From Escherichia coli (GTDB lineage Bacteria > Pseudomonadota > Gammaproteobacteria > Enterobacterales > Enterobacteriaceae), in NCBI RefSeq assembly GCF_003790525.1, contig NZ_CP033635.1: a DNA stretch of 64,000 nt; one strand, given 5' to 3'. The position numbers and the translations under genes were made by a program. Of the stretch, positions 1 to 44,612 are shown piece by piece; position 1 is the stretch's first letter, and each line of letters begins with the position of its first letter. The notes beneath the pieces are model-generated. The model ran no database searches. It had not been told where the DNA came from and saw only the letters and a list, made by a program, of their open reading frames with translations.

Positions 1-706
1 CCGTCATACGCCGTTGAATAACATAGTTAATAGGGGAAATACGATACTCTTTGGTAAATTCATGGCAGATATAACTGACGCTGGCACGAAATTTTTTCGA
101 TAACTGCTCTAAAGTGATTTTTTCGCGATAGTTATTATTCAGATAGAAAAGAATATCTTTTATCAGAACATCTTTTTTAATATATCCCTGCTCCGAACGA
201 TAAGCATTTTTAAAGTTTTCGTAGTAAAGAATTGCTAACGTATAGGCAAATGCGTCCCATAACGAAGATGTTTGGCTATTTTTACTTTGCGGCAAAATCA
301 CACTTAGCTCATTAAATAAGGTTTTAATGACTTCTTTTCCCTGCCCTGCGGCAATTACCGGGCAAGAATGCGGTTGCAGTAGCTGATTTTCCTCAGCCCC
401 CTGAAACTGAAAGCCGTACAGCGCACAGGTACACGTCGTTGCCGGATCGTTAACGTCAGAGGCCACCGCATGCAGCCTGCCACGTTCTATCACCACAATG
501 TCATCGGCATGCGCGACATATAACGAAGAATCGATGGTAAACCTTGCTACCCCTTTCTTGACGTAAATCAGCTCGGTTTCATTGTCATGAACGTGATGTC
601 CGGACTCCCATTTTGGATCATCGCTAAATGCGAAACGTGAAAGCCGTGGCGTTTTACCGGCGACAAACAGCGTTTCACTGGCATTATCAAAACAGCGTTG
701 ATACAT
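1..706 (-). CDS. ydiP: AraC-family transcriptional regulator, N-terminal portion only (3' end of gene lies before window start)
   Basis: Reverse-strand reading from ATG at 704-706 gives MYQRCFDNASETLFVAGKTPRLSRFAFSDDPKWESGHHVHDNE..., a cupin-type sensor domain, and the AraC-type HTH (..EFTKEYRISPINYVIQRRMT) runs off the window edge. Divergent from ydiQ as in K-12. Confidence 0.7.
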   Translation of the reverse strand, partial: MYQRCFDNASETLFVAGKTPRLSRFAFSDDPKWESGHHVHDNETELIYVKKGVARFTIDSSLYVAHADDIVVIERGRLHAVASDVNDPATTCTCALYGFQFQGAEENQLLQPHSCPVIAAGQGKEVIKTLFNELSVILPQSKNSQTSSLWDAFAYTLAILYYENFKNAYRSEQGYIKKDVLIKDILFYLNNNYREKITLEQLSKKFRASVSYICHEFTKEYRISPINYVIQRRMT

Positions 707-1021
707 GACAACCTCCCTATTCCATGAGCAAGCAAAAACAATATATGCCGGATAAAATACGGCGTGTATTGCGGTTATACAACCGCGTTTAGCGAGAGCT
801 AAACAAGATTATTTACACTGAATGCAAGATTGTACGGTCATGGAATAACTATATTGCCGCAAATTGCACTTTTGTTTTAGCGATCGCATTTTTTTTGCAA
901 GATTGTTGGCAAGGAAAACAGCTTGCTCCGTCGAAAACCCCGCACCGCTATCGCACACTATTTTCAGGCCATATTTACCTTCCATCGGAGATGGTTCCGT
1001 ATGCGACTCACAGGAGAAATC

Positions 1022-1786
1022 ATGAAAATAATAACCTGCTTTAAGCTGGTGCCTGAAGAACAGGACATTGTTGTCACTCCAGAATATACCCTGAATTTCG
1101 ACAATGCCGACGCCAAAATCAGCCAGTTCGATCTCAATGCCATTGAAGCTGCAAGCCAGCTTGCATCAGATGACGATGAGATAGCCGCGCTGACCATTGG
1201 CGGCTCATTGTTGCAGAACTCGAAAGTGCGAAAAGACGTGCTATCCCGCGGGCCGCATAGCCTGTATTTGGTGCAGGATGCGCAACTTGAACATGCACTG
1301 CCTCTCGATACCGCAAAGGCGCTGGCGGCAGCAGTTGAAAAGATCGGCTTCGATTTACTGATCTTTGGTGAAGGTTCCGGCGACCTTTATGCCCAGCAGG
1401 TTGGCTTGCTGGTCGGAGAAATTCTGCAACTTCCGGTGATTAATGCAGTGAGTGCTATTCAGCGTCAGGGCAATACACTGGTGATTGAACGCACGCTTGA
1501 AGATGATGTTGAAGTTATTGAGCTCTCTGTTCCAGCCGTGCTCTGCGTCACCTCCGATATTAACATGCCACGCATTCCTTCGATGAAAGCCATTCTCGGC
1601 GCGGGTAAAAAACCGGTAAATCAGTGGCAGGCAAGTGACATTGGCTGGAGCCAGAGCGCACCACTTGCTGAACTGACCGGTATTCGCGTACCGCCGCAAA
1701 CAGAACGTAAGCACATCATTCTCGATAACGATTCGCCGGAGGCCATTGCCGAGCTGGCGGAACATCTGAAGAAAGCCCTGAACTGA
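1022..1786 (+). CDS. ydiQ: Electron-transfer-flavoprotein beta-subunit-like protein
   Basis: Track ORF 923..1786 trimmed to the ATG at 1022 (MKIITCFKLVPEEQDIVV...), giving 254 aa, which matches E. coli YdiQ. Confidence 0.9.
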   Translation: MKIITCFKLVPEEQDIVVTPEYTLNFDNADAKISQFDLNAIEAASQLASDDDEIAALTIGGSLLQNSKVRKDVLSRGPHSLYLVQDAQLEHALPLDTAKALAAAVEKIGFDLLIFGEGSGDLYAQQVGLLVGEILQLPVINAVSAIQRQGNTLVIERTLEDDVEVIELSVPAVLCVTSDINMPRIPSMKAILGAGKKPVNQWQASDIGWSQSAPLAELTGIRVPPQTERKHIILDNDSPEAIAELAEHLKKALN

Positions 1787-1805
1787 AGTCTACGGAGAAG
1801 AAACG

Positions 1806-2744
1806 ATGAGTCAATTAAACAGCGTCTGGGTCTTTAGCGATAATCCTGAACGTTATGCTGAACTGTTTGGCGGCGCTCAGCAATGGGGCCAACAGGTGTA
1901 TGCCATTGTACAAAATACCGAGCAGGCGCAGGCAGTTATGCCTTATGGGCCAAAATGCATTTATGTTCTTGAGCAAAACGACGCGCTGCAACGTACTGAA
2001 AATTACGCCGAAAGCATTGCTGCCCTGCTGAAAGATAAACACCCCGCTATGTTGCTGTTGGCCGCGACGAAACGTGGTAAAGCTCTGGCAGCACGGTTAA
2101 GTGTGCAACTGAATGCGGCGCTGGTGAACGATGCCACGGCGGTGGATATTGTCGATGGTCACATTTGCGCCGAACACCGGATGTATGGCGGGTTAGCGTT
2201 CGCACAGGAAAAGATCAACAGCCCGCTGGCGATCATTACCCTTGCACCCGGTGTTCAGGAACCGTGCACCCGTGATACCTCTCATCAGTGCCCGACAGAA
2301 ACGGTACCTTATGTTGCCCCGCGTCATGAAATTCTCTGTCGCGAACGCCGTGCGAAAGCGGCAAGCAGCGTGGACCTGAGCAAAGCAAAACGTGTGGTTG
2401 GCGTCGGTCGTGGTCTGGCGGCGCAGGATGACCTGAAAATGGTCCACGAACTGGCGGCAGTGCTGAATGCTGAAGTCGGCTGTTCACGTCCAATTGCCGA
2501 AGGCGAGAACTGGATGGAGCGTGAACGTTATATCGGTGTCTCCGGCGTGTTGCTGAAATCCGATCTCTACCTGACGCTGGGGATCTCCGGGCAGATCCAG
2601 CATATGGTTGGCGGCAACGGCGCAAAAGTGATTGTCGCCATCAATAAAGATAAAAATGCGCCAATCTTCAACTATGCCGACTACGGTCTGGTGGGCGATA
2701 TCTACAAAGTCGTCCCTGCCCTGATTAGCCAGTTGAGTCGCTAA
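1806..2744 (+). CDS. ydiR: Electron-transfer-flavoprotein alpha-subunit-like protein
   Basis: 312-aa ORF (MSQLNSVWVFSDNPERYAELFGG...) of the ETF alpha/FixB family, 20 bp after ydiQ. Confidence 0.9.
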   Translation: MSQLNSVWVFSDNPERYAELFGGAQQWGQQVYAIVQNTEQAQAVMPYGPKCIYVLEQNDALQRTENYAESIAALLKDKHPAMLLLAATKRGKALAARLSVQLNAALVNDATAVDIVDGHICAEHRMYGGLAFAQEKINSPLAIITLAPGVQEPCTRDTSHQCPTETVPYVAPRHEILCRERRAKAASSVDLSKAKRVVGVGRGLAAQDDLKMVHELAAVLNAEVGCSRPIAEGENWMERERYIGVSGVLLKSDLYLTLGISGQIQHMVGGNGAKVIVAINKDKNAPIFNYADYGLVGDIYKVVPALISQLSR

Positions 2745-2798
2745 TTCCCTTTCAACCACATCTCCCGCTGTAAACGCAGCGGGAAGGGAGCATAACGC

Positions 2799-4088
2799 AT
2801 GTCGGATGACAAATTTGATGCCATTGTGGTCGGTGCGGGCGTTGCCGGTAGCGTTGCCGCACTGGTCATGGCGCAAGCCGGGCTGGATGTCCTGGTGATA
2901 GAACGCGGCGACAGTGCCGGATGTAAAAACATGACCGGCGGGCGTCTTTATGCCCACACACTTGAAGCGATTATTCCAGGCTTTGCAGCATCAGCGCCGG
3001 TAGAACGCAAGGTCACACGCGAGAAAATCTCCTTCTTAACCGATGAGAGTGCCGTTACCCTCGATTTTCACCGCGAGCAACCAGATGTTCCGCAACACGC
3101 GTCTTATACCGTATTGCGTAATCGTCTGGACCCGTGGTTGATGGAACAAGCCGAACAGGCTGGCGCGCAGTTTATCCCGGGCGTTCGTGTCGATGCGCTG
3201 GTTCGTGAAGGAAATAAGGTCACTGGCGTCCAGGCCGGGGATGATATTCTCGAAGCGAATGTGGTGATTCTGGCTGATGGCGTTAACTCGATGCTTGGCC
3301 GCTCGCTGGGAATGGTTCCCGCTTCCGATCCGCATCATTACGCTGTTGGTGTTAAAGAGGTTATTGGCCTCACACCAGAACAGATCAAGGATCGCTTTAA
3401 TATTACGGGCGAGGAAGGTGCCGCCTGGCTGTTTGCCGGTTCCCCTTCTGACGGCCTGATGGGCGGCGGATTCCTCTATACCAATAAGGATTCCATATCG
3501 TTGGGGCTGGTTTGTGGATTGGGTGATATCGCCCATGCGCAAAAAAGCGTGCCGCAAATGCTGGAAGATTTTAAACAACACCCCGCCATTCACCCGCTGA
3601 TTAGCGGCGGCAAACTGCTTGAATATTCCGCGCATATGGTGCCGGAGGGCGGTCTGGCAATGGTGCCGCAGCTGGTTAACGATGGCGTGATGATCGTTGG
3701 TGACGCCGCAGGCTTCTGCCTGAATTTGGGTTTTACAGTTCGCGGCATGGATTTAGCCATTGCATCAGCTCAGGCTGCCGCCACAACAGTGATTGCAGCC
3801 AAAGAACGCGCGGATTTCTCCGCCAGCAGTCTGGCGCAATACAAACGTGAGCTGGAACAAAGCTGCGTCATGCGTGATATGCAGCATTTTCGCAAGATCC
3901 CGGCGCTGATGGAAAATCCGCGCCTGTTTAGTCAGTATCCGCGCATGGTCGCCGACATCATGAACGAGATGTTCACCATTGACGGCAAACCAAACCAGCC
4001 GGTACGCAAAATGATCATGGGACACGCGAAGAAAATTGGGCTGATCAACTTGCTGAAAGATGGCATTAAGGGAGCAACCGCGCTATGA
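2799..4088 (+). CDS. ydiS: FAD-dependent oxidoreductase (ETF-quinone oxidoreductase/FixC-like)
   Basis: 429-aa ORF with an N-terminal FAD-binding motif (AIVVGAGVAGSVAA). Confidence 0.9.
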   Translation: MSDDKFDAIVVGAGVAGSVAALVMAQAGLDVLVIERGDSAGCKNMTGGRLYAHTLEAIIPGFAASAPVERKVTREKISFLTDESAVTLDFHREQPDVPQHASYTVLRNRLDPWLMEQAEQAGAQFIPGVRVDALVREGNKVTGVQAGDDILEANVVILADGVNSMLGRSLGMVPASDPHHYAVGVKEVIGLTPEQIKDRFNITGEEGAAWLFAGSPSDGLMGGGFLYTNKDSISLGLVCGLGDIAHAQKSVPQMLEDFKQHPAIHPLISGGKLLEYSAHMVPEGGLAMVPQLVNDGVMIVGDAAGFCLNLGFTVRGMDLAIASAQAAATTVIAAKERADFSASSLAQYKRELEQSCVMRDMQHFRKIPALMENPRLFSQYPRMVADIMNEMFTIDGKPNQPVRKMIMGHAKKIGLINLLKDGIKGATAL

Positions 4089-4378
4089 GCCAGAACGCTA
4101 CGGTTAACGTCGACATCAAATTAGGCGTCAATAAATTCCATGTTGATGAGGGACACCCGCATATCATTTTGGCGGCAAATCCCGATATCAATGAATTCCG
4201 TAAATTAATGAAAGCTTGCCCTGCCGGACTTTATAAGCAGGATGACGCAGGAAACATTCATTTCGATTCCGCCGGTTGTCTGGAGTGCGGCACCTGTCGG
4301 GTGCTGTGCGGCAACACTATTCTCGAACAGTGGCAATATCCCGCAGGCACCTTCGGTATTGATTTTCGCTACGGCTAA
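4085..4378 (+). CDS. ydiT: Ferredoxin-like protein (FixX-like)
   Basis: 97-aa ORF overlapping the ydiS stop by 4 nt, with a Cys cluster (CLECGTCRVLC). Confidence 0.85.
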   Translation: MSQNATVNVDIKLGVNKFHVDEGHPHIILAANPDINEFRKLMKACPAGLYKQDDAGNIHFDSAGCLECGTCRVLCGNTILEQWQYPAGTFGIDFRYG

Positions 4379-4380
4379 TC

Positions 4381-6075
4381 ATGCATCCCACAGGCCCGCA
4401 TCTCGGGCCTGATGTTCTGTTTCGAGAGTCCAAAATGAAAGTGACATTAACGTTTAACGAACAACGTCGTGCGGCGTATCGTCAGCAAGGGCTATGGGGC
4501 GATGCTTCGCTGGCCGATTACTGGCAGCAGACCGCTCGTGCGATGCCAGACAAAATTGCCGTGGTCGATAATCATGGTGCATCATACACCTATAGCGCGC
4601 TCGATCACGCCGCGAGCTGTCTGGCAAACTGGATGTTGACGAAGGGTATTGAATCAGGCGATCGCATCGCATTTCAACTGCCTGGCTGGTGTGAATTTAC
4701 CGTTATCTATCTTGCCTGCCTGAAAATCGGTGCGGTTTCCGTACCGCTGTTGCCTTCCTGGCGGGAAGCAGAACTAGTATGGGTACTCAATAAGTGTCAG
4801 GCAAAAATGTTCTTTGCACCGACGTTGTTTAAACAAACGCGTCCGGTAGATTTAATCCTGCCGCTGCAAAATCAGCTTCCACAACTACAACAAATTGTCG
4901 GCGTGGACAAACTGGCTCCCGCCACCTCTTCCCTCTCATTAAGTCAGATTCTCGCCGACAATACCCCACTGACTACGGCGATAACGACCCACGGCGATGA
5001 ATTAGCCGCTGTGCTATTTACCTCCGGAACCGAGGGTCTGCCAAAGGGCGTGATGCTAACGCATAACAATATTCTCGCCAGTGAGCGGGCTTATTGCGCG
5101 CGGCTGAATCTGACCTGGCAGGATGTCTTTATGATGCCTGCGCCACTTGGTCACGCAACGGGCTTTCTGCATGGCGTAACAGCACCATTTTTAATTGGTG
5201 CTCGCAGCGTGTTGTTAGATATTTTCACTCCTGCTGCGTGTCTCGCGCTGCTTGAGCAGCAGCGTTGCACCTGTATGCTCGGCGCAACGCCGTTTGTCTA
5301 TGATCTTTTGAATTTACTAGAGAAACAGCCCGCAGACCTTTCAGCGCTGCGTTTCTTTCTTTGTGGCGGTACCACAATCCCCAAAAAAGTGGCGCGTGAA
5401 TGCCAGCAGCGCGGCATTAAATTATTAAGTGTTTATGGTTCCACAGAAAGTTCGCCGCATGCGGTGGTGAATCTCGATGATCCTTTGTCGCGCTTTATGC
5501 ACACCGATGGTTACGCTGCCGCAGGTGTAGAGATTAAAGTGGTCGATGGCGCACGCAAGACCTTACCGCCAGGTTGCGAAGGTGAAGAAGCCTCGCGTGG
5601 CCCCAATGTGTTTATGGGGTATTTTGATGAACCTGAATTAACCGCCCATGCCCTGGATGAAGAAGGCTGGTATTACAGCGGCGATCTCTGCCGCATGGAT
5701 GAGGCTGGCTATATAAAAATAACCGGGCGCAAGAAAGATATTATTGTCCGCGGCGGCGAAAATATTAGCAGCCGTGAAGTGGAAGATATTTTATTACAGC
5801 ATCCTAAAATTCACGATGCTTGTGTGGTTGCGATGCCCGATGAACGCTTAGGTGAACGTTCATGCGCTTATGTCGTGCTGAAAGCACCGCATCATTCATT
5901 ATCGCTGGAAGATGTAGTGGCATTTTTTAGCCGTAAACGGGTCGCGAAATATAAATATCCTGAACATATCGTGGTAATCGAAAAACTACCGCGCACTGCC
6001 TCCGGTAAAATACAAAAATTTTTGTTACGTAAAGATATTCTTCAACGGCTGGAACAAACATGCGTTGAGGCATAA
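4381..6075 (+). CDS. fadK: Short-chain acyl-CoA synthetase
   Basis: 564-aa ORF with AMP-binding motifs (FTSGTEGLPKGV, ..YGSTE.., ..GYIKITGRKKD..). An internal start at MKVTL (about 4435) is also possible. Confidence 0.85.
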   Translation: MHPTGPHLGPDVLFRESKMKVTLTFNEQRRAAYRQQGLWGDASLADYWQQTARAMPDKIAVVDNHGASYTYSALDHAASCLANWMLTKGIESGDRIAFQLPGWCEFTVIYLACLKIGAVSVPLLPSWREAELVWVLNKCQAKMFFAPTLFKQTRPVDLILPLQNQLPQLQQIVGVDKLAPATSSLSLSQILADNTPLTTAITTHGDELAAVLFTSGTEGLPKGVMLTHNNILASERAYCARLNLTWQDVFMMPAPLGHATGFLHGVTAPFLIGARSVLLDIFTPAACLALLEQQRCTCMLGATPFVYDLLNLLEKQPADLSALRFFLCGGTTIPKKVARECQQRGIKLLSVYGSTESSPHAVVNLDDPLSRFMHTDGYAAAGVEIKVVDGARKTLPPGCEGEEASRGPNVFMGYFDEPELTAHALDEEGWYYSGDLCRMDEAGYIKITGRKKDIIVRGGENISSREVEDILLQHPKIHDACVVAMPDERLGERSCAYVVLKAPHHSLSLEDVVAFFSRKRVAKYKYPEHIVVIEKLPRTASGKIQKFLLRKDILQRLEQTCVEA

Positions 6076-6087
6076 GTCATAAATAAT

Positions 6088-6117
6088 AAAGCACCTTACA
6101 CGCAAGGTGCTTTATTC
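6088..6117. terminator. Bidirectional rho-independent terminator between convergent fadK and the SDR gene
   Basis: Hairpin aaagcacctt-acacgc-aaggtgcttt, flanked by an A-run upstream and T-rich sequence downstream. Confidence 0.55.
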
Positions 6118-6125
6118 AATCTCGA

Positions 6126-6869
6126 TTAACCACGTCCGACATACGGCATATTATTTGCCATAATCGTTATTTCCAGCACATTCGTGGTTACTGGCAACTG
6201 AGCCATCATCTGAATGGTCGCTGCAACATCAGCAACATTCATCATATCTTCCGCTTTAATAGCACCATCTGCCTGATAAACGCCCTTACGCATCCGATTC
6301 GATAATGTCGTTTCCGCATTGCCGATATTAATTTGCCCGCAAGCGATATTAAATTTGCGACAATCCAGGGAAATGGCCTTGGTCAACCCGGTAACAGCAT
6401 GTTTCGACGCCGTGTATGGCGCAGTATAGAGGCGCGGCGTCAGTGCAGAAATCGACGCATTGTTAATAATACGTCCTCCCATTGGCTGCTGCGCTTTCAT
6501 GATTTTAATCGCCTCTTTCGAACACAAAAATGTCGAATGAATATTGGCGTTAAACACGCGCGTCCACTCAGTAAACTCAACCTCTTCAATACTTTTTGCC
6601 GGACTATTATTGCCCGCATTTTTGAACAAGAGATCCAGTCGACCAAAAAGAGCCTTAATCTCGGCAAATAGCGCAACGACAGCGGACTCATCCGTGACAT
6701 CGGCAACCAGAGGAATAAAGCGTTCCTTGGCTAATCCTTGTGCACATTGCTGTAAGGTTTCTTCGTTACGCGCGGCAACAATAACTGTATATCCAATGTC
6801 ATAGAGTGCCTTTGCTGCTGCGTAGCCGATGCCTTTACTTCCCCCCGTCACCAGGGCAATTTTTGTCAT
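6126..6869 (-). CDS. Short-chain dehydrogenase/reductase (SDR) family oxidoreductase
   Basis: 247-aa ORF with TGGSKGIG Rossmann motif, NAG motif and catalytic YTASK. No equivalent gene is recalled at this position in K-12. Confidence 0.8.
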   Translation of the reverse strand: MTKIALVTGGSKGIGYAAAKALYDIGYTVIVAARNEETLQQCAQGLAKERFIPLVADVTDESAVVALFAEIKALFGRLDLLFKNAGNNSPAKSIEEVEFTEWTRVFNANIHSTFLCSKEAIKIMKAQQPMGGRIINNASISALTPRLYTAPYTASKHAVTGLTKAISLDCRKFNIACGQINIGNAETTLSNRMRKGVYQADGAIKAEDMMNVADVAATIQMMAQLPVTTNVLEITIMANNMPYVGRG

Positions 6870-6881
6870 AGCCAGCTCCGC

Positions 6882-7361
6882 CTATAATAAACTCATGTCG
6901 ATTTTCACGACTGTTTTTTTGATTTTTTCCACGTTATCGATTTTATAGCATGCCCGATGCACTTCTTCCGGAAAGACCACCACAAACTGTCCTGGTGTCA
7001 GCGTGATGATTCGATCATTAATACGTTCATCAGCATAAAAAATAACATCACGGTCGCCCAGGTGGCTTTCTACAACCGAGTTTTCCCCATCATCAAAATC
7101 CACACAAATCCGCTCTTCTCCGGCAATTAAAAAATGGACATCAAGATATTTACGATGAACTTCCGGTCGACATTCATGTAGTGGTTTAGTCATCGGTTCA
7201 ACCACGGTATAAAATATTGAGTCATCCTGAATAAAAACCTTCTCTCCCACAGGAAGACTATTCAGATCATGTTGTGAAAGATACTCAATGACACGAGTGA
7301 TGACAGGATGAAATGTCCGCTTTTGTTGTTCACTAAGATACGCGATATCACCATAAATCAT
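6882..7361 (-). CDS. YhcH/YjgK/YiaL (DUF386) family protein
   Basis: Track ORF 6882..7496 trimmed to the internal ATG (MIYGDIAYLSEQQKRTFHPVI...), about 159 aa. An RBS-like aaggcgga lies upstream, and the longer ORF would overlap the upstream dehydrogenase. Confidence 0.65.
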   Translation of the reverse strand: MIYGDIAYLSEQQKRTFHPVITRVIEYLSQHDLNSLPVGEKVFIQDDSIFYTVVEPMTKPLHECRPEVHRKYLDVHFLIAGEERICVDFDDGENSVVESHLGDRDVIFYADERINDRIITLTPGQFVVVFPEEVHRACYKIDNVEKIKKTVVKIDMSLL

Positions 7362-7371
7362 ATTTTCCGCC

Positions 7372-8330
7372 TTATTGAGTAACAGGGGTAATAACTGGCC
7401 GTCCGCTAAAGAAAGCCTGTAAGTTATCAAATACCAAATCCGCCATCGCATTAAACGTTTCGCTCGTACCACTGGCGATATGTGGCGTAAGGACAACGTT
7501 ATCCAGCGACATTAATTGTTCTGGCACATGTGGTTCGTTGGCATAAACGTCCAGTGCCGCACCAGCAATGATGTTATTTTGCAGAGCATCAATCAGATCG
7601 GTTTCGTTCACCACTGATCCCCGGGAAATACTGATCAAATGCCCGGTTTTCCCCAGAGCCTGCAGCACCGTTTTGTCAATAACGCCGCGCGTACTCGCGC
7701 CGCCTGGCAGCGTCAGAACGAGGAAGTCCACCGCTTGCGCCAGAGAAACCAACGAATCATGCGCCGTCCAATCAGGTTTGTTATGCGGTTTTGGGTCGAA
7801 ATAGTGAATTTCCATTTCAAATGCTGCTGCACGGCGGGCTACTGCGTTACCAATGTTCCCCAGACCGACAATTCCGCAACGTTTGCCACTCACTTTCGTC
7901 GCCATCGGGAAACGCCCCTCGTTTGGCCAACGGCCGTCACGAACATAACAATCGGCAATGTTAATACGTCGGGCAACATTGAGTAACAACGCTATACCAA
8001 TGTCTGCGACACAGTCATTAAGCACGCCAGGTGTGTTGGTGACGATAACGCCATGCTCCCTGGCTGCCACGATATCAATAGGGTCATAACCCACACCGTT
8101 GCTGGCAATAATCTTCAGATTCGGAATTTTTCTATTAGCGCCCGAGAAGCCCCCATTACCGGATTACCACTGGTCACCAGCGCCTGAATATCCGGCGCGA
8201 TTTGCGTGTAAAAAGCGCCTTCATCAGCCAGTTCCCACAGGCGATATGCGGTGAAGGTAGATTCAACTTTAGCCATTAAGCGGTCACTTAATTTGCCGAC
8301 GATCGCCACTTGAATATCTTTTAAGTTCAT
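7372..8330 (-). pseudogene. D-isomer-specific 2-hydroxyacid dehydrogenase (glyoxylate/hydroxypyruvate reductase-like), disrupted by a frameshift
   Basis: The N-terminal 71 aa (8115..8330, ..ALIEKFRI*) and the remaining 240 aa (7372..8094) are in different frames. Reading the second frame upstream restores the expected ..PNLKIIASNGVGYD.. motif, consistent with a 1-bp deletion near 8118-8127. Confidence 0.7.
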
Positions 8331-8365
8331 ACACTATTCCTTGATTGATGTTTGTCGCAGGCCAC

Positions 8366-9766
8366 TTACCACAGGCCAAGAATTTTCCACCACACCGCCC
8401 CCAGTCCGAACCAGATGGCAATGTTCAACAACATGACGATAAAGCCCAGCCGCCACCATTCTCGTTGCGAGACATAGCCAGCGCCGTAATAGATCACTGC
8501 GGGTCCGTTGCCATAATGCGAAATGCCGCTCATCAGGTTAGTGACGAACGCCAGTGACAGAGCCGCCATCATCGGCGGTGCGCCAGCAGCAACCGAGACG
8601 CTGCCAAAAGCGGCATACATCGCCACTACATGCGGCGTACTTCCGGCAAAGAAATAGTGGGAATAGCAGTAAACTATCAGCAACACCGTCAACGTTATCT
8701 CCCACGGAATGCCGGTGAACAGCGCCGAGGTTGTGACGGCAAACCATTTGAACAGGCCAAGCTGATTGAGCTTATCTGCCATACAGATCATGACTCCCAG
8801 CCAGACCAGAATGTCCCAGGCCCCCTTCTCTGACTGCACATCCTGCCAGGTGATAATCCGGGTCATCAACATTAAACAGACGCCAGAAAGCGCGACAGCC
8901 GTCGCATCCAGGCCAGTCCATTTCGATGTACTCCAGGCCAATAATGAAAGCAGGAAAATGCCAATTGTCACGCGCTCATCACGGGTTACCGGCCCCATTT
9001 TGATAAGTTCTTCCTGTGCCAACGCTTTGGCTTCTGGCGTCTTTTTGATCTCTGGCGGGTAGAGTTTGTAAATGACCAACGGCATAGTGATAAAAGCGAT
9101 AATGCCCGGCACCAGTGCGCTTAGCGTCCACATCCCCCATGAGATATCGACAAATAAAGTGCTGGCCGCCAGAGATACAATGAGTGCATTTGGCGCGCTG
9201 GCCGTCATAAACATCGAGGATGAGAGACAGTTGGAATGGAACACCGTCTGCATCAGATAAGCGCCTATTTTACGCGGCCCTTGATCCGGTTCAGATCCAA
9301 AGCTGTTAGAGACACTGCGAACAATCGGGAACAAAATCCCTCCTGCTCGCGCTGTGTTTGATGGCGTTGCGGGCGCGATAATCATATCGCTTAGCGCCAA
9401 TGTATAACCCAGACGCAACGAGCTGCCGCCAAATCCGCGAATCAGCAAATAGGCGATACGCCGCCCCAACCCCGTTTTGATGAATCCTTTCGCGTACAGG
9501 AATGCGGCGACAATAAGCCATACCGTCGTGCTGCTGAAACCTTTTAAGGCTTCGCTGGTTTTCATCATACCGGTCAGCATAATAAAACTGATGGCTATTA
9601 ACGCGATAGCGCCCACCGGCAACGGTTGCAGAATAAACGCCACCACAGTGGTGATAAATATGGCCAGAATGTGCCAGGTTAAGGGTGTTAATCCGTCGGG
9701 GACGGGGAAAAACCATATAGCGAGTGCGACAATCGCACAAATCAGGACTTTCAAATAGCAACTCAT
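8366..9766 (-). CDS. DASS-family anion permease (CitT/TtdT/YbhI-like di/tricarboxylate transporter)
   Basis: About 466-aa polytopic membrane ORF; the track starts at a TTG (9772), the first ATG is at 9766 with an aggga RBS-like sequence upstream. First gene of a four-gene minus-strand operon. Confidence 0.8.
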   Translation of the reverse strand: MSCYLKVLICAIVALAIWFFPVPDGLTPLTWHILAIFITTVVAFILQPLPVGAIALIAISFIMLTGMMKTSEALKGFSSTTVWLIVAAFLYAKGFIKTGLGRRIAYLLIRGFGGSSLRLGYTLALSDMIIAPATPSNTARAGGILFPIVRSVSNSFGSEPDQGPRKIGAYLMQTVFHSNCLSSSMFMTASAPNALIVSLAASTLFVDISWGMWTLSALVPGIIAFITMPLVIYKLYPPEIKKTPEAKALAQEELIKMGPVTRDERVTIGIFLLSLLAWSTSKWTGLDATAVALSGVCLMLMTRIITWQDVQSEKGAWDILVWLGVMICMADKLNQLGLFKWFAVTTSALFTGIPWEITLTVLLIVYCYSHYFFAGSTPHVVAMYAAFGSVSVAAGAPPMMAALSLAFVTNLMSGISHYGNGPAVIYYGAGYVSQREWWRLGFIVMLLNIAIWFGLGAVWWKILGLW

Positions 9767-10023
9767 ATGCAATCCCTGTAGCTGTTTCCCACCGCTCGCG
9801 GAGGGAATTTATCCTGTTTTCTGTACAGCCAGACAAATCAGAAAATCGGTTTTAGTTCGAATAAATTCTCTGAATTACATAATCTGCGCTTATGTCTGAA
9901 TAACGGTGCGGTAATTTTTCATGGCCATATCCCTTTTTATGCTGTGGTTGAAGATAGTATAAAAACGGGACTCATCAGTGACTTCGTGCAATCCAACGAA
10001 CTCTGGACGAAAAAATTACGCAT

Positions 10024-10236
10024 ATGCTTAAGGAAATTGACGTGTGGTCACATTCGGCTTTGAGAAAAAACGGTATCGAGAATTATTCTGTGGAGAGGAT
10101 CGCAAACAAATTAAAATCAGAAAGAACAGCAGCCAATTATTCAGATGATGTCCGGAAACTTTTTATATTGCATGAGCGCGTTTGCCCAAAGCAGGTTGTT
10201 AAAAGGTGGGGATATAGAAATGGACCCGGCGACTGA
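10024..10236 (+). CDS. Hypothetical small protein (70 aa), possibly a gene remnant
   Basis: ATG-initiated ORF (MLKEIDVWSHSALRKNGIENYSVERIANK...) divergent from the transporter operon and followed by a hairpin plus T-run. No clear RBS and no family recognised. Confidence 0.2.
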   Translation: MLKEIDVWSHSALRKNGIENYSVERIANKLKSERTAANYSDDVRKLFILHERVCPKQVVKRWGYRNGPGD

Positions 10237-10252
10237 ACGCCGCCGGGTTTTT
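10224..10252. terminator. Hairpin terminator at the ppsA 3' end (possibly bidirectional)
   Basis: Stem cccggcg/cgccggg followed by tttttattt, located immediately 3' of the ppsA stop. Confidence 0.45.
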
Positions 10253-10254
10253 AT

Positions 10255-12633
10255 TTACTTGTTAAGTTCAGCCAGACTTAACCAGGTTTGCACCACGGTG
10301 TCCGGGTTAAGAGACAGGCTATCGATCCCCTCTTCCATCAACCATGCAGCAAAGTCTTCGTGGTCGGATGGACCCTGACCGCAAATCCCGACATATTTGC
10401 CCTGTTTCTTCGCGGCACGAATCGCCATCGACAGCAGTGCTTTCACCGCATCGTTGCGCTCATCGAACAGTTCAGATACCACGCCGGAGTCACGATCCAG
10501 ACCGAGCGCCAGCTGCGTCATGTCGTTTGAGCCAATTGAGAAGCCGTCGAAATATTCGAGGAACTGCTCGGCCAGCAAGGCGTTGGACGGGATTTCACAC
10601 ATCATGATGATTTTCAGCCCGTTCTCACCACGTTTCAGCCCCTGACGCGCCAGTTCCTCAACCACCGCTTTCGCCTGATCTACGGTACGCACGAACGGGA
10701 TCATGATCTCAACGTTGGTCAGCCCCATGTCGTTGCGCACACGTTTCACTGCTTCACACTCCAGCGCGAAGCAGTCGCGGAAGCTGTCGGAAACATAGCG
10801 GCCCGCGCCACGGAAGCCGAGCATCGGGTTCTCTTCATCTGGCTCGTAACGCTCACCACCGACCAGGTTGGCATATTCGTTCGATTTAAAATCAGAGAGA
10901 CGGACAATGACGCGCTTCGGATAAAACGCGGCACCCAGCGTCGCGATCCCTTCAGTCAGACGACCAACGTAAAATTCACGCGGAGAATCAAAACCTTTCA
11001 TCATCTCGCGGATTTCGTTTTGCAACTGCGGTTCTTGATCGTCAAACTCAAGCAGCGCGCGTGGGTGGACGCCAATCATACGGTTGATGATAAATTCCAG
11101 ACGCGCAAGGCCCACGCCTTCGTTCGGCAGGCAGGCGAAGTCGAAAGCACGATCCGGGTTACCGACGTTCATCATCACCTTCAACGGCAGGTCCGGCATC
11201 GTTTCTACGCTGGAGCTTTTCACGCTAAATTCCAGCAACTCCGCATAGACATAACCGGTATCACCTTCGGCACAAGAAACAGTGACGTTCTCACCGTCTT
11301 TCATCCGTTCTGTTGCATCACCACAGCCCACTACCGCCGGAATGCCGAGTTCACGAGCGATGATCGCCGCGTGACAGGTACGACCGCCACGGTTGGTGAC
11401 GATGGCAGATGCTTTCTTCATGATCGGTTCCCAGTCCGGGTCGGTCATGTCAGTAACCAGCACGTCACCAGGTTCGATGCGGTTCATTTCGCTGATGTCA
11501 TGGATGACTTTCACCGGACCCGCGCCGATGCGATGACCGATAGCACGGCCTTCGGCGATAATCTTACCCTGTGAATGCAGCGTATAACGCTCCATGACCT
11601 GACCGCGTGAGCGCACGGTTTCCGGACGCGCCTGCACAATGAACAGTTTGCCGGTGTGGCCATCTTTCGCCCACTCAATATCCATCGGGCGACCGTAGTG
11701 TTTCTCAATTTGTACGGCCTGTTTTGCCAGTTCCTGCACTTCTTCGTTGGTCAGCGAGAAGATGTCACGCTGTTCCTGCGGTACGTCTTCGATTTTAACC
11801 TGCTTGCCGTGCTCCTGGGTCGGCGCGTAAACCATGCGGATTTTTTTCGACCCCATGGTGCGGCGCACGATAGCCGGGCGATTCGCCGCCAGTGTCGGTT
11901 TGTGCACGTAAAACTCATCCGGGTTAACCGCACCCTGCACGACCATTTCACCAAGGCCCCATGCGGAAGTGATAAACACCACCTGGTCAAAGCCGGATTC
12001 GGTATCAATGGAGAACATCACGCCAGAAGATGCGAGGTCGGAGCGCACCATCCGCTGAACACCGGCGGAGAGCGCCACGCCACGGTGATCGTAACCCTGG
12101 TGCACACGATAAGAGATGGCGCGATCGTTAAACAGAGAAGCAAATACATGTTTCACTGCCACGAGAACGGCGTCAAAACCCTGAACGTTGAGGAAGGTTT
12201 CCTGCTGACCGGCAAAAGAAGCGTCCGGCATATCTTCTGCAGTAGCGGAGGAACGCACCGCAAACGAGGCGTTTTCGTCATCGGCGGAAAGCTGTGCATA
12301 GGCTTCGCGGATGGCGTTTTCCAGCTCAGGCTGGAAGGGAGTGTCGATAATCCACTGGCGGATTTGCGCGCCCGCTTTCGCAAGCTGGGTAACATCGTCA
12401 ATATCCGTTTTATCCAGCAGTTCATAAATGCGCTGGTTTACGCCGCTTTGGTCCAGAAACTGGTTAAACGCGTCGGCGGTTGTGGCGAAACCATTCGGAA
12501 CGGAAACACCCATTCCGGAAAGGTTAGTAATCATTTCACCCAGGGAGGCATTTTTGCCCCCAACCCTGTCTACATCATTCATGCCGAGTTGGTTATACCA
12601 AAGCACCAGCGGTGACGAGCCATTGTTGGACAT
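10255..12633 (-). CDS. ppsA: Phosphoenolpyruvate synthase
   Basis: 792-aa ORF ([34 protein letters not shown]...) with PEP-utilising enzyme domains; length matches E. coli PpsA. Confidence 0.97.
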
Positions 12634-12721
12634 CGAACAATCCTTTTGTGATAAATGAACGGTTTGAGAAACACATTTCTGCGCATTTATCTTTGCATAT
12701 TTAACCGGATGAAAAAAACGG

Positions 12722-12737
12722 TGAATCGTTCAAGCAA
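12722..12737. promoter_or_regulatory. Candidate Cra (FruR) binding site in the ppsA promoter region
   Basis: tgaatcgttcaagc resembles the Cra half-palindrome consensus, about 90 bp upstream of the ppsA start. ppsA is a known Cra-activated gene. Confidence 0.35.
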
Positions 12738-12964
12738 ATATATTTTTTTACTTTTTAAGACTGATCCCAGCGTTGCGCAAATCTGCTCTCTTCGACAATT
12801 TCCACATAAACCATCGGTATAAACGAAACCATAAAAATGAAATGCTGTTTTCATAAAAAATAAAATTGAAGGTTCATTTATAAACCAGACATAACGTTCT
12901 ACGCTTCTGTGCGTTTTTAATTTATGCTTTCATAGAATTATGTCTGCATCACGGGAAGAACAAA

Positions 12965-43769: not shown

Positions 43770-44612
43770 TTACTGATTAAATTCAGTCAATTTCTTACGA
43801 TAGCTCTTAGGCGTAAAGGACGTTAATTTCTTAAACGTTTTAATAAACAAACTCGGGCTACTATAACCGGCCTCAAACGCAACATCCGTCACTGAATAGT
43901 TGGTCATTTCCAGTTGTTTTTTGGCAAAATTAATACGGATTTCATTAATAATCTGCATTGGCGTTTTGCCATAATATCGTTGAGTCGCTCGCGTCAAATA
44001 TTCCTGTGATTTGGCTGACAACGTCACCATATTCTCCAGTGCCGATTCACTAAACTGCTCTTTATCATGCATCTTTTCTACCGTACTTTTCAGCCACTGC
44101 GGTACATCATCAATCACCTGTTCTTCGCGGTAATGACGTAAACGGTTAATGACATAAAAAGTAACCATCTCAACAAACTCTTCCAGCCCTGTTTCGCGGA
44201 AATTCAATGAAGAAATCACTGTTTCCACATAGGTGAGAAAAGCGTTATTGGTCCGGTATACCTGCGAAGCAACAAAGCAATAAGGCAACAACGGCAGGTA
44301 ATGCTGCTCAAAAAAGCGTTTACTGATCCCAACGTTCAATATGCGCGTGGCACCAAACTCATAAAAACTTTGATGGTGCGAACCTAACGGAATAAAAACA
44401 AAATCGCCCCGTTCCAGTAACACGCGCTTACCGTTAATCTCCTGGAAATAACGCCCGGTTAATACCAGAGTAAATTCATAATAGTCGTGCTGATGCAGTC
44501 CGCTGATACTCTCAGTTTTGTTGTAGATAAACACATGGAAGTTTTTGCCATTAAACAACTGCTGTTCTCGGGCAGTGGCAATTTCCGGCGCGTTAATCAT
44601 TGGCTGCATCAT
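43770..44612 (-). CDS. chbR: AraC-family chb operon regulator
   Basis: 280-aa ORF with a C-terminal AraC HTH. Confidence 0.93.

Follow-up and report, generated by a model that had tools for sequence, protein, structure and literature searches.

A probable recent one-base frameshift in the 2-hydroxyacid dehydrogenase gene of the fadK-ppsA module in a strain of Escherichia coli

In the 64,000-nucleotide stretch of E. coli DNA analysed here, hereafter called the window, a gene encoding a 2-hydroxyacid dehydrogenase is divided between two open reading frames. The arrangement raises the question of whether the strain carries a genuine frameshift mutation, whether one base was dropped during sequencing or assembly, or whether the two frames together form a functional gene. 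A reading of the window from its sequence alone, hereafter called the sequence-only reading, had offered an inactivating mutation or a homopolymer error as the two choices, an either-or which the present analysis supported and narrowed towards a genuine mutation. Most probably (about 0.84) the locus is a genuine slipped-strand frameshift pseudogene that arose recently and is specific to the strain.

The junction and the missing base

The 5′ fragment of the gene (8115..8330, - strand) starts with ATG and encodes 71 amino acids, 69 native codons being followed by Arg-Ile and a premature TGA at 8115-8117, with the tail ..SRALIEKFRI. The earlier description of a 71-codon ORF ending ..ALIEKFRI* was confirmed, as was that of a 240-codon remainder in the -1 frame (7372..8094, - strand). 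The latter ORF (240 amino acids, MGYDPIDIV...) has a GTG start and lies within a longer 3′ remainder in the -1 frame (7372..8124, - strand), which is identical to the intact allele; upstream of the 240-amino-acid ORF this frame reads ..RKIPNLKIIASNGVGYDPID. The exact sequences of both products are found in NCBI nr, as WP_225877570.1 (71 amino acids) and WP_250147265.1 (240 amino acids).

The intact 960-nt gene of strain 2014C-3075, which encodes a protein of 319 amino acids (WP_001049278.1), was used as the alignment reference. Across the junction the intact orthologue reads ..ALIEKFPNLKIIASNGVGYDPIDIV.., and the sole gap in the 161-nt alignment lies where the window has GAAAAA-TTCCG and the intact gene GAAAAATTTCCG, the two sequences being otherwise identical. 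On the gene strand the sequence changes from GAAAAATTTCCG (A5T3) in the intact orthologues to GAAAAATTCCG (A5T2) in the window, and the AAA of the intact genomes on the + strand is AA in the window (8125-8126), adjoining T5 at 8127-8131. Pairwise alignments to 2014C-3075 and SMS-3-5 place the one-base deletion at 8125..8126 (- strand), inside the run around 8118-8127 to which the sequence-only reading had correctly assigned the lesion. Alignment to intact orthologues, which that reading had proposed as a check, showed exactly one base to be missing in the window, and one added base restores ..EKFPNLKII.., as it had predicted. The base is lost from the Phe69 codon (TTT to TT) within the A5T3 tract of the gene strand, the last T beginning the shift. 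The two-ORF split is a direct sequence difference and not a statistical pattern prone to chance.

The intact orthologue has a PF02826 match (4e-50) which is retained in the 240-amino-acid remainder (2e-50), whereas coverage of the PF00389 profile, 34-133 in the intact orthologue, is reduced to 71-133 (of 134) in the remainder, and the 71-amino-acid fragment had no Pfam match of its own. The NAD-binding motif GLGNIG, which has the GxGxxG form of a Rossmann fold, and the Arg/Glu/His catalytic motifs are unchanged in the 3′ remainder. No single polypeptide encoded in the window holds the complete catalytic domain, and the gene belongs, in disrupted form, to the family defined by PF00389 and PF02826. 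All 21 NCBIfam equivalog matches of the intact protein were below the curated cutoffs, with scores of 173.8 for GhrB (cutoff 492) and 223.9 for glyoxylate reductase (cutoff 455), and at this level the protein is therefore not identified as any named enzyme (GhrB, glyoxylate reductase, PGDH and others). The closest type to the intact protein is that of the GhrB/TkrA-type glyoxylate/hydroxypyruvate reductases (PDB 4lsw, 5j23, 3ba1), with which the intact orthologue shares PF00389, PF02826 and the GLGNIG dinucleotide-binding motif. It aligns with 4lsw over nearly the full length (E = 4e-80), including the ALIE-x-x-PNL...GVGYD motif that is broken in the window, but it differs from this type in falling far below every equivalog cutoff, and the window copy is in addition truncated at residue 69.

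Close relatives (SMS-3-5, 2014C-3075 and others) carry an intact allele in a single ORF, from which the window is separated by a one-base gap, and translation of the window copy stops after 71 codons, whereas the NAD-binding domain starts at residue 113; both are features of a frameshift pseudogene. A split but functional enzyme was also considered and was rejected: the sole start for the 240-amino-acid remainder is the GTG at 8094, which has no convincing ribosome-binding site upstream and which also cuts the conserved GVGYD motif.

The module, its relatives and the rarity of the allele

Four closely packed genes of the same orientation lie between fadK and ppsA, in the order DASS anion permease, dehydrogenase, YhcH/DUF386 and SDR, and the dehydrogenase gene is the second of them. 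The DASS-family anion permease (gene 1, 8366..9766, - strand, 466 amino acids) is intact and matches TIGR00785 with 447.6 bits, the cutoff being 198.6. Gene 3 (6882..7361, - strand, 159 amino acids), assigned to YhcH/YjgK/YiaL (DUF386) by profile matches, is likewise intact; it starts 10 nt past the dehydrogenase stop codon and is therefore exposed to polarity from the premature stop. Gene 4 (6126..6869, - strand) encodes a classical SDR oxidoreductase of 247 amino acids with a private N83K change (AAT to AAA, T at 6621 on the + strand) within the NNAG motif. This motif is kept in 14 of the 14 other SDR cluster members read, the N83K change is absent from SMS-3-5, and the substitution is probably damaging to the SDR. 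Judged from the gene content, the pathway of the module probably handles a carboxylate or a sugar acid. When the module was scanned for promoters and terminators, their numbers did not surpass those in shuffled sequence, and a literature search on the fadK-ppsA module found no work on it.

The window is nearly identical to E. coli SMS-3-5, with two SNPs and one indel over 61,232 nt (window 1-61232): T for A at 6621, the one-base deletion in the dehydrogenase gene, and C for T at 43883. Between 6000 and 10300 the window differs from SMS-3-5 at base level by the missing base and by the SNP at 6621, and 19 complete genomes, including SMS-3-5, score identically against this interval (7,932 bits, 4,302-nt span), which argues that the intact state is ancestral and the lesion recent. 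The 24 kb from 12000 to 36000 are identical to SMS-3-5 and to eleven other complete genomes. Since the window shows one indel and two SNPs in 61,232 nt, and 24-kb identity to twelve genomes, the assembly is not an error-prone one.

The substitution at 43883 lies in chbR (43770..44612, - strand), where SMS-3-5 has ATT (Ile) at codon 244 and the window GTT (Val). The last 2.8 kb of the window (61233-64000) belong to an integrase-bearing island right after ynjA, which is absent at that position in SMS-3-5; the window is therefore from a distinct strain. The island begins with a tyrosine integrase gene (61386..62603, + strand), followed by glycosyltransferase family 4 and phosphoethanolamine-transferase-like sequences. 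Its junction after ynjA was also found in 29 complete E. coli genomes, and a tRNA scan at the junction near 61.2 kb gave no tRNA gene.

The dehydrogenase gene was found in 114 of 5,426 complete RefSeq E. coli genomes. Among the matches listed, all full-length ones span 960 nt and are intact, and one partial match, in H40, is split in two places. The window allele was sought both by the full gene sequence and by a 100-nt probe spanning the site, and none of the 114 gene-bearing genomes has it; the probe matched 102 complete genomes, the best match being 99.0% identical over a 101-nt span, none with the window allele. At least 1,000 contigs are on record with a protein identical to the intact one. 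From these comparisons the lesion appears to be recent and private to the strain, and the 3′ remainder, which shows no further decay, fits a recent event.

Mutation, miscall or recoding

A sequencing or assembly error would mean that the strain really has A5T3 and that one base was dropped when the length of the homopolymer was called. This explanation is rather unlikely. It draws on the composite homopolymer A5T3, a classic context for length miscalls, on the lack of the window allele in all of the gene-bearing complete RefSeq genomes, a set from which the strain's own complete genome is missing, and on the complete genomes of LS45 and XDL, of the same lineage, in which isolated one-base deletions in the operon resemble assembly noise. 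The affected run is, however, just 3 bases long, and a single indel in 61.2 kb relative to the nearest relative is unlike an unpolished long-read assembly. Furthermore, the same base call is found on a draft contig of 178 kb, RDDW01000007.1 (GCA_003686615.1), which matches window 126-12869 at 100% identity, has the deletion too, and carries no called protein over the dehydrogenase interval. The size of this contig, from which alone its origin was deduced, suggests a short-read assembly, in which a 3-base run would be very unlikely to lose a base in the consensus; the contig may nevertheless be the window's own source, its independence from the window being only partly established. A miscall also leaves unexplained, as a random error, the second private change in the same operon, SDR N83K, a variant found on two NCBI contigs, RDDW01000007.1 and one of 5,539,489 bp (AYW30679.1). 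The 3.65-kb operon holds two of the three sites at which the window differs from SMS-3-5 (binomial p about 0.01, a value resting on three differences only).

The two-ORF arrangement could alternatively be functional, either by -1 ribosomal frameshifting or with the tract as a reversible on/off switch for the module, but this is highly improbable. The zero frame at the junction, ATA GAA AAA TTC CGA, is without an X XXY YYZ heptamer, and only a single-tRNA AAA-to-AAA re-pairing is possible. Such a -1 slip of the P-site tRNA-Lys on GAA-AAA would be sterically possible, and its predicted product, ..EKIPNLK.., would have 319 amino acids and differ only by F69I. No Shine-Dalgarno-like element was seen upstream on inspection of the sequence, and the fold of the 83 nt downstream was no better than that of shuffles (z = +0.51), with an MFE of -19.9 kcal/mol against a shuffle mean of -21.6 and with 128 of 200 shuffles at least as good. 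Programmed frameshifting was rejected on these three counts, namely heptamer, Shine-Dalgarno-like element and downstream structure, and is very unlikely at this junction. The site resembles dnaX-type programmed -1 frameshifting in the -1 frame of its downstream ORF and in the tRNA-Lys-decoded A-run at its junction, but it lacks the tandem slippery heptamer, the Shine-Dalgarno-like stimulator upstream and the hairpin downstream. It differs further in that the two-ORF arrangement is unconserved. Orthologues sharing this arrangement together with signs of programmed frameshifting, which the sequence-only reading had named as evidence against its interpretation, were not found, the orthologues being single-ORF in all the full-length matches listed among the 114 genomes and in the widely recorded intact protein.

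A reversible switch would find some support in the three independent length alleles known at the one tract, A5T2, A4T3 and A6T3. These alleles shift the frame in different directions, however, and no common recoding signal is therefore possible. Phase-variable loci typically have a homopolymer of 7 or more bases and frequent length variants among close relatives. The runs of 5 and 3 bases in the A5T3 tract are well below the known lengths of phase-variable tracts, and the window allele was absent from 102 of the 102 probe-matched complete genomes.

Consequences and other lesions of the module

A genuine frameshift pseudogene thus remains the preferred reading. The proposed course of events is that slipped-strand mispairing during replication lost one base in the composite A5T3 tract at codons 67-69. 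As read from the sequence, the frame shifts after Phe69 and translation stops two codons later, and the 71-amino-acid product is without the NAD-binding domain and all catalytic residues. No credible start of translation is available to the remaining 240 codons, which would yield no enzyme, so that a null allele is expected. A real deletion would almost certainly abolish the dehydrogenase step. In addition, about 750 nt left untranslated may lower the expression of the two downstream genes, and such polarity on the DUF386 and SDR genes is plausible. In this clone decay seems to affect the entire module, because the SDR also carries the private N83K change in NNAG; disabling of the whole module, which the sequence-only reading had considered, is an inference.

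The lesion is like ordinary slipped-strand frameshift pseudogenes (PGAP 'frameshifted'): a one-base indel within a mononucleotide run leads to a premature stop after a few codons, near-identical genomes have the allele intact, and the rest of the gene is undegraded. There is no substantive difference from these, the one noteworthy point being that the A5T3 tract has been struck independently in at least two other lineages. The phenomenon is ordinary gene decay, which is already known, and the products of the allele are already in NCBI records.

The other alleles of the tract were found by exact-sequence look-ups of N-terminal fragments. In the A4T3 allele (GAAAATTTCCG, A5 to A4; tract at L007:6188-6217) the product has 71 amino acids and ends ..ALIENFRI*. 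Among the matches listed it occurs in four Logan assemblies (L007-L010; SRR28646883, SRR23098562, ERR11440740 and SRR30949391), which have 8-10 mismatches to the window over 2.6-4.3 kb, are identical or nearly so to each other and represent one lineage. The A6T3 allele (+1; tract at L011:6188-6219), with the product ..ALIEKISESEDYCQQWCGL*, occurs in six contigs (L011-L016), from the PDII01, PDIH01, PDIE01, PDIL01 and PDIK01 assemblies and the Logan run SRR6148328. This group is approximately 96.5% identical to the window, with mutual differences of up to about 1%, and its protein is labelled 'unclassified Escherichia'. Several of the A6T3 assemblies also have broken copies of the DUF386 gene, fadK and ppsR, with a different pattern in each assembly, which reflects either real decay or low assembly quality. 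The dehydrogenase gene has only three 5-base homopolymers, and a frameshift allele was also found at its G5 run (P0009); frameshifts at both the A5T3 and the G5 runs are the pattern expected from slipped-strand mispairing. That natural indels strike the A5T3 tract in other lineages, and that the operon is broken by IS1 in CS5L, speaks for a genuine mutation in the window.

Lesions were also found elsewhere in the module, among them those of three near-identical complete genomes. In the complete genome of CS5L (L018) an IS1 element unambiguously splits the SDR gene, and the permease has a missense change. The permease gene of XDL (L002) has a -1 deletion adjoining a GATC site at about window 8497, and in LS45 (L017) both the SDR gene (about window 6725) and the permease gene (about 9641) have lost one base by a change from CC to C; as evidence for recurrent decay the lesions of XDL and LS45 were downgraded, since one-base losses at a GATC-adjacent site or in CC are possible assembly errors. 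A record labelled Shigella flexneri (4.87-Mb contig; P0006, P0045) contains the same module, with the dehydrogenase frameshifted near codon 90 and with several substitutions in the SDR.

This accessory metabolic operon shows signs of decay in several lineages. A broader proposal is that the module is under recurrent, lineage-independent inactivation in Escherichia, with A5T3 at codons 67-69 as the preferred breaking point, and the lesions listed for it are A5T2 with N83K, A4T3, A6T3, the IS1 insertion in CS5L and the P0006 fragment. We regard it as unlikely. If it were true, loss of the pathway would be favoured in some niches, or the tract would act as a low-frequency reversible switch.

The finding raises no new question, and its practical value is that of an annotation and quality-control flag. 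Should the deletion be real, the clone is short of one step, and possibly of the whole, of an accessory pathway that is present in approximately 2% of complete E. coli genomes; as a natural knockout, the strain would then be of minor use for its own annotation and for assigning a phenotype to the module.
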